Part shown: positions 58,615 through 59,410 of the stretch, one piece after another
How positions within the stretch are numbered: the first letter of the stretch is position 1
Layout of the letters: every line of letters begins with the position of its first letter
NCBI RefSeq assembly: GCF_054482525.1
Contig: NZ_CM137006.1
Strand: one strand, 5' to 3'
DNA: 64,000 nt
Notes under the pieces: generated by a model
Databases searched by the model: none
Seen by the model: the letters and a program-made list of their open reading frames with translations, nothing else
Told to the model about the DNA's origin: nothing
Translations under genes and position numbers: made by a program

Positions 58615-59410
58615 ACCTAATATCCTTATATCCAGAAGTGGAGAGGTGCAAGATAAATCAAAACACCATAATTACTGTTTGCAGAATAATTCCTTTCTGC
58701 CGGTCCGAAATGTGATCGTGGAGTCAATTCTGACGATGATCTGAAATAAGAATAACGTCTGAACGGGTATAAGAAAATGCTTAAATCATCAAGTTTATAT
58801 ATTTTTACATTTCATTGATGAAATCAATGTAACTGCAATGAATTTTAATGATAGTGCTTTTTGTATCTTGTTGATATTAATCAATGAATTTGAATTCATG
58901 ATGAAGTGATGATTTTATAAAACGTTTTTTCATTTTTGCGAGATGGCTCTCATTATACGTGTTCTGTTAATTAATGAGCACAGTGATAATTAATGACGAA
59001 ATGAATGACGCGCTTTTTCCACATCTTTGAGTTGCGGTTATTACACCATTTCAAAAACTCAACGCCAGGTAATGCGGCCTATTGACTGGTTAAAAAGAAG
59101 ACATCCCGCATGGGTACCAAAGACAACAAGGATTTCCAGGCTAATCTTATGGATTAATCTGCTGCGCGCTCGGTGATTTGTCTGACAAATAAGCTTTTCC
59201 TTATGTCTTTTCCCGCTAAATTTATGCACGTTCTCACTGTAATTCTGCGATGTGATATTGCTCTCCTATGGAGAATTAATTTCTCGCTAAAACTATGTCA
59301 ACACGGTCACTTATCTTTTAGTTAAAAGGTAATGCTTTGTTTTCCGATTAATTTAACGAATTTCATTCGTTTTTGCCCTACACAAAACGACACTAAAGCT
59401 GGAGAGAACC

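Follow-up and report, generated by a model that had tools for sequence, protein, structure and literature searches.

The ftnB-araF interval of Escherichia coli: two control regions and a fast-evolving spacer at a position where related genera carry a DJ-1/PfpI gene

The long interval between the divergent genes ftnB and araF of Escherichia coli consists of two control regions, both of them already studied, and a spacer that separates them; its anatomy and its pattern of conservation are shown here. Very probably the interval is a composite of these two regions with an H-NS-coated spacer, located where a DJ-1/PfpI gene has been lost, and harbors no further gene. According to this model, the ftnB side would contribute promoters and a long leader through which CsrA prevents translation, and the araF side would contribute two AraC dimer sites, a CRP site adjoining RNA polymerase, a weak core promoter, and a leader on which Spot 42 is reported to act as a repressor. 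The ~300 bp between them would be the AT-rich, H-NS-coated remainder of the region that once lay upstream of the DJ-1/PfpI gene. We suggest that this gene and its terminator hairpin were deleted in the ancestor of Escherichia, whereby two intergenic regions would have been fused, and that the gap is long because these two regions became one. The spacer would have been drifting, with a single sharp motif, an FNR box specific to E. coli, that would usually lie under H-NS. Data on CsrA, H-NS, FNR, sigma70, and transcript 3' ends were taken from published papers.

Extent and anatomy of the interval

A first-pass annotation of the 64-kb window (the whole stretch of 64,000 nucleotides of E. coli DNA that was analysed) had described about 800 bp without an open reading frame (ORF) of 60 codons or more between the divergent ftnB and araF genes, and this description was accurate. 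The gap between the two genes is exactly 58615–59410, or 796 bp, and the ORF listing shows no frame of 60 codons or more inside it; the longest have 56, 53, 50, and 49 codons and all begin at GTG or TTG codons. An ORF of 115 codons that runs antisense to araF extends 58 nt into the gap. The corresponding gap of K-12 is also 796 bp long, has no annotation inside, and differs from that of the window at 13 positions. The sequence from 58500 to 59500 is 100% identical to that of strain PCN033, and most of it is matched by 5409 of 5426 complete E. coli genomes, nearly all at 95–99% identity.

The gap had also been called AT-rich, longer than most promoter regions, and furnished with several AT-rich inverted repeats, and the measurements bear this out. 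Its GC content is 35.2%, compared with 49.2% for the whole window, and reaches a minimum of 26–30% at 58700–59000. The 50 kb around it contain 63 gaps between annotated features, with a median length of 61 bp; the ftnB-araF gap is the longest of them, and the next measures 319 bp. Counting arms of 5 nt or more and loops of up to 8 nt, the gap has 27 inverted repeats, as against 11.1 ± 4.0 in 300 dinucleotide-preserving shuffles of the gap, none of which reached 27; repeats with arms of at least 7 nt number five, as against 0.9 in the shuffles.

Comparison among species divides the gap into three blocks (Table 1). Loci encoding FtnB relatives were collected from one genome per species (n = 38), and the gap was aligned among 8 Escherichia sequences and, separately, across genera; the identities within the genus compare E. 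coli with E. albertii, E. whittamii, and three other Escherichia species. The outer blocks, A and C, exceed the identity of the third codon positions of ftnB and araF in the same comparison, and are therefore under constraint. The middle block, B, evolves at the silent-site rate or faster, and probably drifts at or above the neutral rate; its identity to locus L003 is 83%.

Table 1. Features of the ftnB-araF interval, in window coordinates. Identities are those of E. coli to the other Escherichia species.
Feature	Position	Strand	Basis or remarks
ftnB	58111–58614	-	
Block A: ftnB promoter region and 5' UTR of probably ~125–145 nt	58615–58819 (~205 bp)	-	Conservation, published fusion, sigma70 peak; 92–97% identity
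Four GGA motifs of the ftnB leader	58704–58706, 58691–58693, 58631–58633, 58623–58625	-	Read from sequence
Hairpin GCAGAA-AGGAATTA-TTCTGC, GGA in loop	58681–58700	-	Inverted-repeat search
CpxR-like box GTAAAAATATATAAA, predicted	58794–58808	-	One mismatch to GTAAA-N5-GTAAA; distal edge of block A
Block B: AT-rich spacer	58820–59124	none	26–35% GC; 50–54% identity
B1	58820–58911		Weak homology to distal ftnB upstream region of other genera (nhmmer)
Perfect FNR consensus box TTGATATTAATCAA	58871–58884 (in B1)	none	Sole exact match in the 64-kb window
B2	58912–59124 (~212 bp)		
Block C: araFGH control region	59125–59410 (~285 bp)		Conserved across genera; 84–91% identity
Distal AraC dimer site	Half-sites 59127–59143 and 59148–59164, 21 bp apart	-	Two and one mismatches to TAGC-N7-TCCATA
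Palindrome ATTTGTCTGACAAAT	59176–59190	none	Centred midway between the two AraC sites; inverted-repeat search
Proximal AraC dimer site	Half-sites 59202–59218 and 59223–59239, 21 bp apart	-	Two and three mismatches to half-site consensus
CRP site TGTGATATTGCTCTCC, predicted	59251–59266	+	Two mismatches to TGTGA-N6-TCACA
araF core promoter and 5' UTR	59288–59410	+	Weak -10-like TAAAAC at 59288–59293; conservation
Shine-Dalgarno GGAG of araF	59399–59402	+	
araF	59411–60400	+	
Benchmark: third codon positions of ftnB and araF			69–79% identity, same species comparison

The spacer and the DJ-1/PfpI gene of other genera

The AT-richness expected of H-NS-silenced DNA is found here, with 26–35% GC over 58700–59100 compared with 49% for the window. 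Published ChIP-chip data for K-12 (PMC3688515 Table S3) contain an anaerobic H-NS region at 1983947–1985830 in the old K-12 coordinates, equivalent to window 57733–59616, and an aerobic H-NS region of ~7 kb at 1982242–1989198 in the same coordinates. After conversion, for which a 1976-bp offset was checked on the FNR box, both regions span the whole ftnB-araF gap. Repression of ftnB by H-NS has been described in Salmonella (PMC3212961).

Only E. coli has the FNR box of B1 in its perfect form; L003 departs from the consensus at one position, and in the other Escherichia species the box is degenerate. In the list of Myers et al. (2013; PMC3688515 Table S6) it appears as a high-scoring predicted site (score 15.49), enriched for H-NS and without an FNR ChIP-seq peak, while FNR binding at ftnB in vivo has been reported elsewhere (PMC2690998), so that the published reports conflict. 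The E. coli ftnB FNR site is called unusually distant in a passage that cites Partridge 2007 (PMC3212961). The box belongs with the silent FNR sites found under extended H-NS regions (PMC3688515), the H-NS region here being longer than 1 kb; it differs from them in that binding of FNR at ftnB has been reported both in vivo and in vitro (PMC2690998; PMC3212961, citing Partridge 2007), and it may therefore not always be silent. Further, in an hns stpA mutant, and only there, araF and araG show oxygen differences of 3.3-fold and 2.7-fold, respectively (PMC3688515 Table S11), which leaves room for a distal effect of FNR and H-NS. It is conceivable, albeit unlikely, that the FNR box and the H-NS filament together make up a distal switch that responds to oxygen and controls ftnB, araFGH, or both, in which case the spacer would not be inert. 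A cryptic transcript reaching from the orphaned DJ-1 promoter region into the AraC sites could be the route of such a switch, which, if it exists, would account both for the oxygen effect on araF and araG being confined to the hns stpA mutant and for the disagreement among the reports of FNR binding.

As for the origin of the spacer, 26 non-Escherichia loci harbor an intact 185-aa ORF on the araF strand between ftnB and the araF position; two of these are Salmonella loci without araF. The encoded protein matches Pfam DJ-1_PfpI (E = 9e-32), and its best NCBIfam match is DJ-1 family glyoxalase III, at a score slightly below the model cut-off. The gene is present in the Salmonella/Citrobacter group and in the Enterobacter/Leclercia/Lelliottia/Silvania group, and the start codons of ftnB and araF are 1000–1435 bp apart in every non-Escherichia locus in which the two genes are neighbors. 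Intermediate states of its decay are found at L008, L015, L039, and L037; they comprise internally deleted remnants in three Citrobacter loci and a frameshifted copy in Leclercia (L037, NCTC13032). Neither the gene nor a remnant of it was detected in any of the 8 Escherichia sequences (tblastn at E <= 10; nhmmer --max). The DJ-1/PfpI gene is hence present in the other genera and absent from Escherichia.

A profile of the interval locates the junctions. E. coli 58619–58911 aligns with profile positions 4–308 and 59124–59410 with positions 1116–1403, and the DJ-1/PfpI gene occupies positions 538–1095; B2 stands where ~229 poorly conserved profile positions upstream of DJ-1, the gene itself, and its terminator lie. 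In the other genera, a GC-rich terminator-like hairpin follows the DJ-1/PfpI stop codon and abuts the distal AraC site. Escherichia has no such hairpin, and homology restarts exactly at the distal AraC site. The lengths are also comparable: in C. werkmanii (L017), the 556 bp from ftnB to the gene and the ~310–320 bp from the gene to araF amount to ~870 bp, compared with 796 bp in E. coli. The other genera have a conserved FNR-like box, located ~90 nt before the start codon of DJ-1. A likeness seen by eye between E. coli TTTTTGCGAGATGGCTC (~58933–58949) and a TTTTTGCGCCAGATCA box upstream of DJ-1 had no statistical support and was discarded.

B2 itself has no homologue detectable with an nhmmer profile outside E. 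coli and its closest relatives, the alignment stopping at gap position 297 (58911). A single copy of it occurs in 5407 of 5426 E. coli genomes, at 90–100% identity, and none of the matches listed (12 records) has a feature annotated under it. A mobile origin of the spacer was rejected, as there was no phage match and the sequence is single-copy in E. coli.

In the accepted phylogeny of the Enterobacteriaceae, the two groups that bear the DJ-1/PfpI gene bracket Escherichia, which makes a loss in the Escherichia ancestor the parsimonious course. From this phylogenetic distribution, we infer that the event was a loss of the gene rather than a gain; the spacer would derive from the DJ-1 upstream region. 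The loss would have been thorough, as the Escherichia sequences appear to retain no DJ-1 coding remnant; for this reason, the region is not classed as a pseudogene. B2, for which no homologue was detected, could also be replacement DNA, and since block B outpaces the third codon positions between species, simple neutral drift of orthologous sequence does not account for it in full. Like other gaps enlarged by lineage-specific gene loss, the interval has conserved regulatory blocks on its flanks and a gene missing in one lineage, the flanks being orthologous on both sides and the gene being found at that position in related genera; unlike those gene-loss gaps in which a pseudogene is still recognisable, the DJ-1/PfpI coding sequence is wholly gone in Escherichia.

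The converse course would be an insertion of the DJ-1/PfpI gene in the other genera, with the long AT-rich gap being ancestral and not a deletion scar. The lack of a detectable coding remnant in every Escherichia sequence agrees with an insertion, as does the lack of a homologue elsewhere for the stretch of the Escherichia spacer that lies closest to the junction. Nevertheless, we regard it as improbable: a single loss is more parsimonious for a gene held by two groups that bracket Escherichia, the gene visibly tends to decay, having been partially deleted three times independently and frameshifted once, and wherever a genus has the gene, the terminator hairpin directly adjoins the conserved AraC site.

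Control regions of ftnB and araFGH

Block A is 100% identical to the K-12 sequence and 65–77% identical to those of Citrobacter and Salmonella. We infer the exact transcription starts of both ftnB and araF. As the published ftnB leader fusion covers +1 to +152 (PMC6686035), ftnB would start near 58740–58760, and a sigma70 ChIP-seq peak reported at the ftnB promoter (PMC3688515 Tables S1/S2) converts to window ~58743. Four GGA motifs were described in the ftnB 5' UTR, where CsrA protects three sites, of which the one covering the Shine-Dalgarno sequence is the strongest (Pourciau et al. 2019; PMC6686035). The leader in the window is identical to that of K-12, and we found no difference from this CsrA-repressed 5' UTR: it likewise has four GGA motifs, with 58623–58625 inside the Shine-Dalgarno sequence of ftnB, and the several GGA motifs expected of a CsrA-bound leader thus include one at the Shine-Dalgarno sequence and one, at 58691–58693, in the loop of a hairpin. 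Individual GGA motifs may be paired, presumptively, with the numbered CsrA sites of that study.

Term-seq placed 3' ends within the leader at K-12 positions 1986856 and 1986899 (PMC7815308 supplements). After conversion they lie at -69, which is window 58683 in the 3' arm of the hairpin at 58681–58700, and at -26, which is 58640. These ends raise the possibility, which we think a slim one, that the ftnB leader gives rise to a short stable RNA running from the start to -69 or -26, either as an attenuated transcript or as a CsrA titrator; such an RNA would bear two to four CsrA sites. The location of the -69 end in a hairpin with a GGA loop, the near-identity of the leader across the genus, and the binding of CsrA to it at three sites (PMC6686035) would all suit such a product. 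However, the scores of the two ends are low (1255 and 886, compared with at least tens of thousands for neighboring entries such as ftnB-antisense, isrB, and cysT), the -69 end is marked as not Rho-dependent (PMC7815308) and its hairpin has no following U-tract, and the ends may be decay intermediates; an independent function has not been reported.

At the distal edge of block A, the columns of the predicted CpxR-like box are kept in all Escherichia species aligned. ftnB is listed among the Cpx-activated genes (PMC9600279; PMC6686035), and the position of the putative box fits the reported Cpx- and sigmaE-dependent ftnB promoters. Fur boxes were also sought in the gap, and were rejected because the best matches had 6–7 mismatches. 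Fur activates ftnA by displacing H-NS from distant sites. The region upstream of ftnA, whose transcription Fur is reported to activate (PMC6686035), is like that of ftnB in being long, AT-rich, H-NS-bound, and attached to a gene of the ferritin family; unlike Fur-activated ftnA, ftnB has no convincing Fur box in the ftnB-araF gap. For Salmonella ftnB, the dependence on Fur was proposed to act via H-NS, with no recognisable Fur motif (PMC3212961).

On the other side, the first-pass annotation had expected an araF promoter under AraC and CRP control, and two pairs of AraC half-sites at the canonical spacing of 21 bp, together with a CRP-like site, were indeed found in a block conserved across genera. 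The AraC pairs and the CRP site make up the best-conserved columns in 36 loci, from Escherichia to Leclercia. The distal AraC site, which points away from araF, is strongly conserved in all genera, and TGTGAT...GCTCTC at the CRP site is near-invariant across them. We take the distal site (59127–59164) to be araFG2 and the proximal site (59202–59239) to be araFG1, the names that Hendrickson et al. are said to have given the araFGH AraC sites in 1990 and 1992. Their work of those years, and that of Johnson and Schleif from 2000, reportedly described a distal and a proximal AraC site with CRP between AraC and RNA polymerase. Transcription of araFGH in K-12 is summarised as arabinose- and cAMP-dependent (as cited in PMC8489885 and PMC2893085), and CRP and AraC are summarised as acting there jointly (Johnson and Schleif 2000, as cited in PMC2893085); the placement of the CRP site here agrees with this summary. 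Loose AraC half-sites numbered 360 in the whole window, compared with 402 expected, and whole-window scans for AraC and CRP sites were at or below chance. Since single half-sites are not enriched in the window, the weight of the argument falls on the 21-bp pairing and on conservation.

Placing the CRP centre at -41.5 would put the araF start near 59300, with a 5' UTR of ~110 nt, in which GGTAATGCYTTGTTTT and CCCTACA are conserved blocks. For araFGH, there are reports of a second promoter, dependent on sigmaS, and of the small RNA Spot 42 as a repressor (PMC8489885; PMC3141248). The whole-molecule duplex of Spot 42 with the araF leader had an energy of -37.2 kcal/mol, no better than the -37.6 ± 4.6 kcal/mol of shuffled sequences. 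Relative to the K-12 araFGH promoter, the window has the same locus, AraC pairs, CRP site, and weak -10, with no difference in kind. Eleven of the 13 gap differences from K-12 fall within the 286 bp of block C, none of them in an AraC half-site or the CRP site, and 9 of the 13 are grouped within the spacer that separates the two AraC sites.

This same inter-site spacer, the most variable part of block C, surrounds a palindrome whose core, TTGTnnnACAA, is found at an unchanged offset in 25 of the 36 loci. Our literature search found no mention of it for araF, and we know of no regulator for a palindrome between the araF AraC sites. The palindrome, ATTTGTCTGACAAAT, fits the generic operator pattern of the GntR family. 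Its part TTGTCTGACAA (59178–59188) could be the operator of a GntR-type regulator of arabinose uptake.

The search for a further gene

The first-pass annotation had also raised the possibility of a further small gene or small RNA in the gap and had called for a search for small ORFs. Nothing that we found supports this suggestion: the middle of the gap is its least conserved part, and the Rfam, folding, ORF, annotation, Term-seq, and sigma70 evidence was negative throughout. A search of 56500–60500 against Rfam (E <= 1) returned no match in the gap, with two weak matches near azuC only, and fold z-scores of 100-nt windows on both strands ranged from -2.3 to +2.1 (n = 64). The K-12 annotation, which includes the small genes spfP and azuC/azuR, has nothing in the gap.

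The gap contains 15 ATG ORFs with 10 codons or more, none of which has a Shine-Dalgarno motif; several of them, of 13–34 codons, lie in 58820–59124. Two other ORFs look conserved because they overlap conserved regulatory DNA, the AraC and CRP sites in the case of the ORF at 59203–59325 and the leader in the case of one at ftnB. Both were rejected as genes, since their variability is flat across the three codon positions (0.135/0.124/0.139 and 0.246/0.278/0.233, respectively) and their stops shift, the first varying from 15 to 64 aa in length across loci and the second being broken in several genera. As regards a small protein gene, then, there is neither a start with a ribosome-binding site nor a preserved ORF with third-position bias.

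A scan found no sigma70-like promoter in the gap, a scan that also misses known activator-dependent promoters. Two terminator-like matches were found in the gap, both weak, one of them inside the araF promoter and the other a 6-pair stem at 59007–59025 on the - strand. In the Term-seq data, both strands of block B are free of 3' ends, those of the gap being confined to the ftnB leader (PMC7815308), and the single sigma70 ChIP-seq peak of the gap is that at the ftnB promoter, with none in block B (PMC3688515). Both data sets come from laboratory cultures, in glucose minimal medium for sigma70, without arabinose induction or removal of H-NS, so a transcript confined to other conditions would escape them. 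So far as the published Term-seq and sigma70 data go, only ends belonging to ftnB and araF map in the interval, the outcome that the first-pass annotation had named as refuting its suggestion. Of the marks of a small RNA gene, neither conservation, nor a match to an RNA family, nor a promoter and terminator of its own, nor mapped ends were found.

It is thus very improbable that 58820–59124 encodes an unannotated small RNA or small protein specific to E. coli, one that might use an orphaned DJ-1 promoter and be expressed only anaerobically or when H-NS is lifted: its single-copy presence in 5407 of 5426 E. coli genomes, its perfect FNR box, the FNR-like box that lies before DJ-1 elsewhere and implies that an anaerobic promoter was once nearby, its short ATG ORFs, and the limited conditions of the published expression data would allow for such a gene, but the sequence is less well preserved among sister Escherichia species than third codon positions and contains many indels, has no ATG ORF with a Shine-Dalgarno motif and no convincing terminator, shows no fold z-score lower than -2.3 in the 64 windows, and contains no Rfam match, Term-seq 3' end, sigma70 peak, or K-12 annotation.

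We conclude that the feature is real but ordinary, and that its control regions were already known. The gap is among the longest non-coding stretches of its chromosomal neighborhood in E. coli, and hence attracts those who hunt for genes. Its length would be a historical accident of the loss of the DJ-1/PfpI gene, and it suggests that long AT-rich gaps are sometimes scars and not hiding places. A second, modest point of use is the conserved palindrome between the two AraC sites.

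A palindrome midway between the AraC sites

Upstream of araF, the exact midpoint between the two AraC dimer sites is occupied by the palindrome ATTTGTCTGACAAAT, whose TTGTnnnACAA core occurs with unchanged offset in 25 of the 36 Enterobacteriaceae loci compared, while the spacer around it, unlike the core, is hypervariable. This strain differs from K-12 at 13 positions across the 796-bp gap between ftnB and araF, 9 of which cluster within window positions 59165–59198, the 34 bp flanking the palindrome, with none inside the palindrome itself. The clustering may stem from the existence of two alleles or from a mutation hotspot at this spot. 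ATTTGTCTGACAAAT matches the operator pattern generic to the GntR family; no regulator is known to act on it.

Features of the ftnB-araF region and of related loci (L-numbers denote loci encoding FtnB relatives)
Feature	Location	Strand	Remarks
CRP consensus TGTGATTTGCATCACA, perfect	window 57481-57496		~85 nt upstream of azuC start codon
Second CRP site, near-perfect	window 57511-57526
azuC	window 57579-57665		encodes 28-aa AzuC
ftnB-leader 3' ends	window 58640 (-26), 58683 (-69)	- (RNA)	Term-seq, PMC7815308
Palindrome ATTTGTCTGACAAAT	window 59176-59190		between AraC dimer sites
ATG ORF, 115 codons	window 59353-59700	-	antisense to araF 5' end
AraH C-terminal fragment, 141 aa	L010 2047-2472		S. 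enterica subsp. diarizonae
DJ-1/PfpI-family gene, 185 aa	L017 2887-3444	-	also in L009, L010, L014 and others

RNA ends and small reading frames

Term-seq has placed two RNA 3' ends within the ftnB 5' UTR (PMC7815308). The one at -69 falls within a hairpin, in its 3' arm; the loop of this hairpin exposes GGA. The two ends could mark an attenuated or processed leader fragment. At the other border, the frame of the antisense ORF is open in the Citrobacter and Leclercia loci too; the ORF probably arises incidentally from the codon usage of araF. Beyond ftnB, two predicted CRP sites precede azuC. Adjoining the downstream end of azuC on the opposite strand (57661–57725, - strand), the Rfam scan gave a sub-threshold match (E = 0.065) to STnc370, a small RNA of enterobacteria; it scored 33.4 bits, where the gathering score is 54.

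Gene content of the interval in other genera

In most non-Escherichia genera, a DJ-1/PfpI-family gene separates ftnB from araF, with a conserved FNR-like box, TTGCGCCAGATCA(T/A), preceding the start codon of this gene by approximately 90 nt. Three Citrobacter loci (L008, L015 and L039) show independent decay of the gene, and the Leclercia copy (L037) carries a frameshift. In Salmonella enterica subsp. diarizonae, araFGH has been deleted; pieces of the araF promoter and of its leader survive (L010, approximately 2000–2830), together with a C-terminal fragment of AraH. araF is likewise absent from the subsp. arizonae locus (L013); both loci retain ftnB and the DJ-1/PfpI gene.
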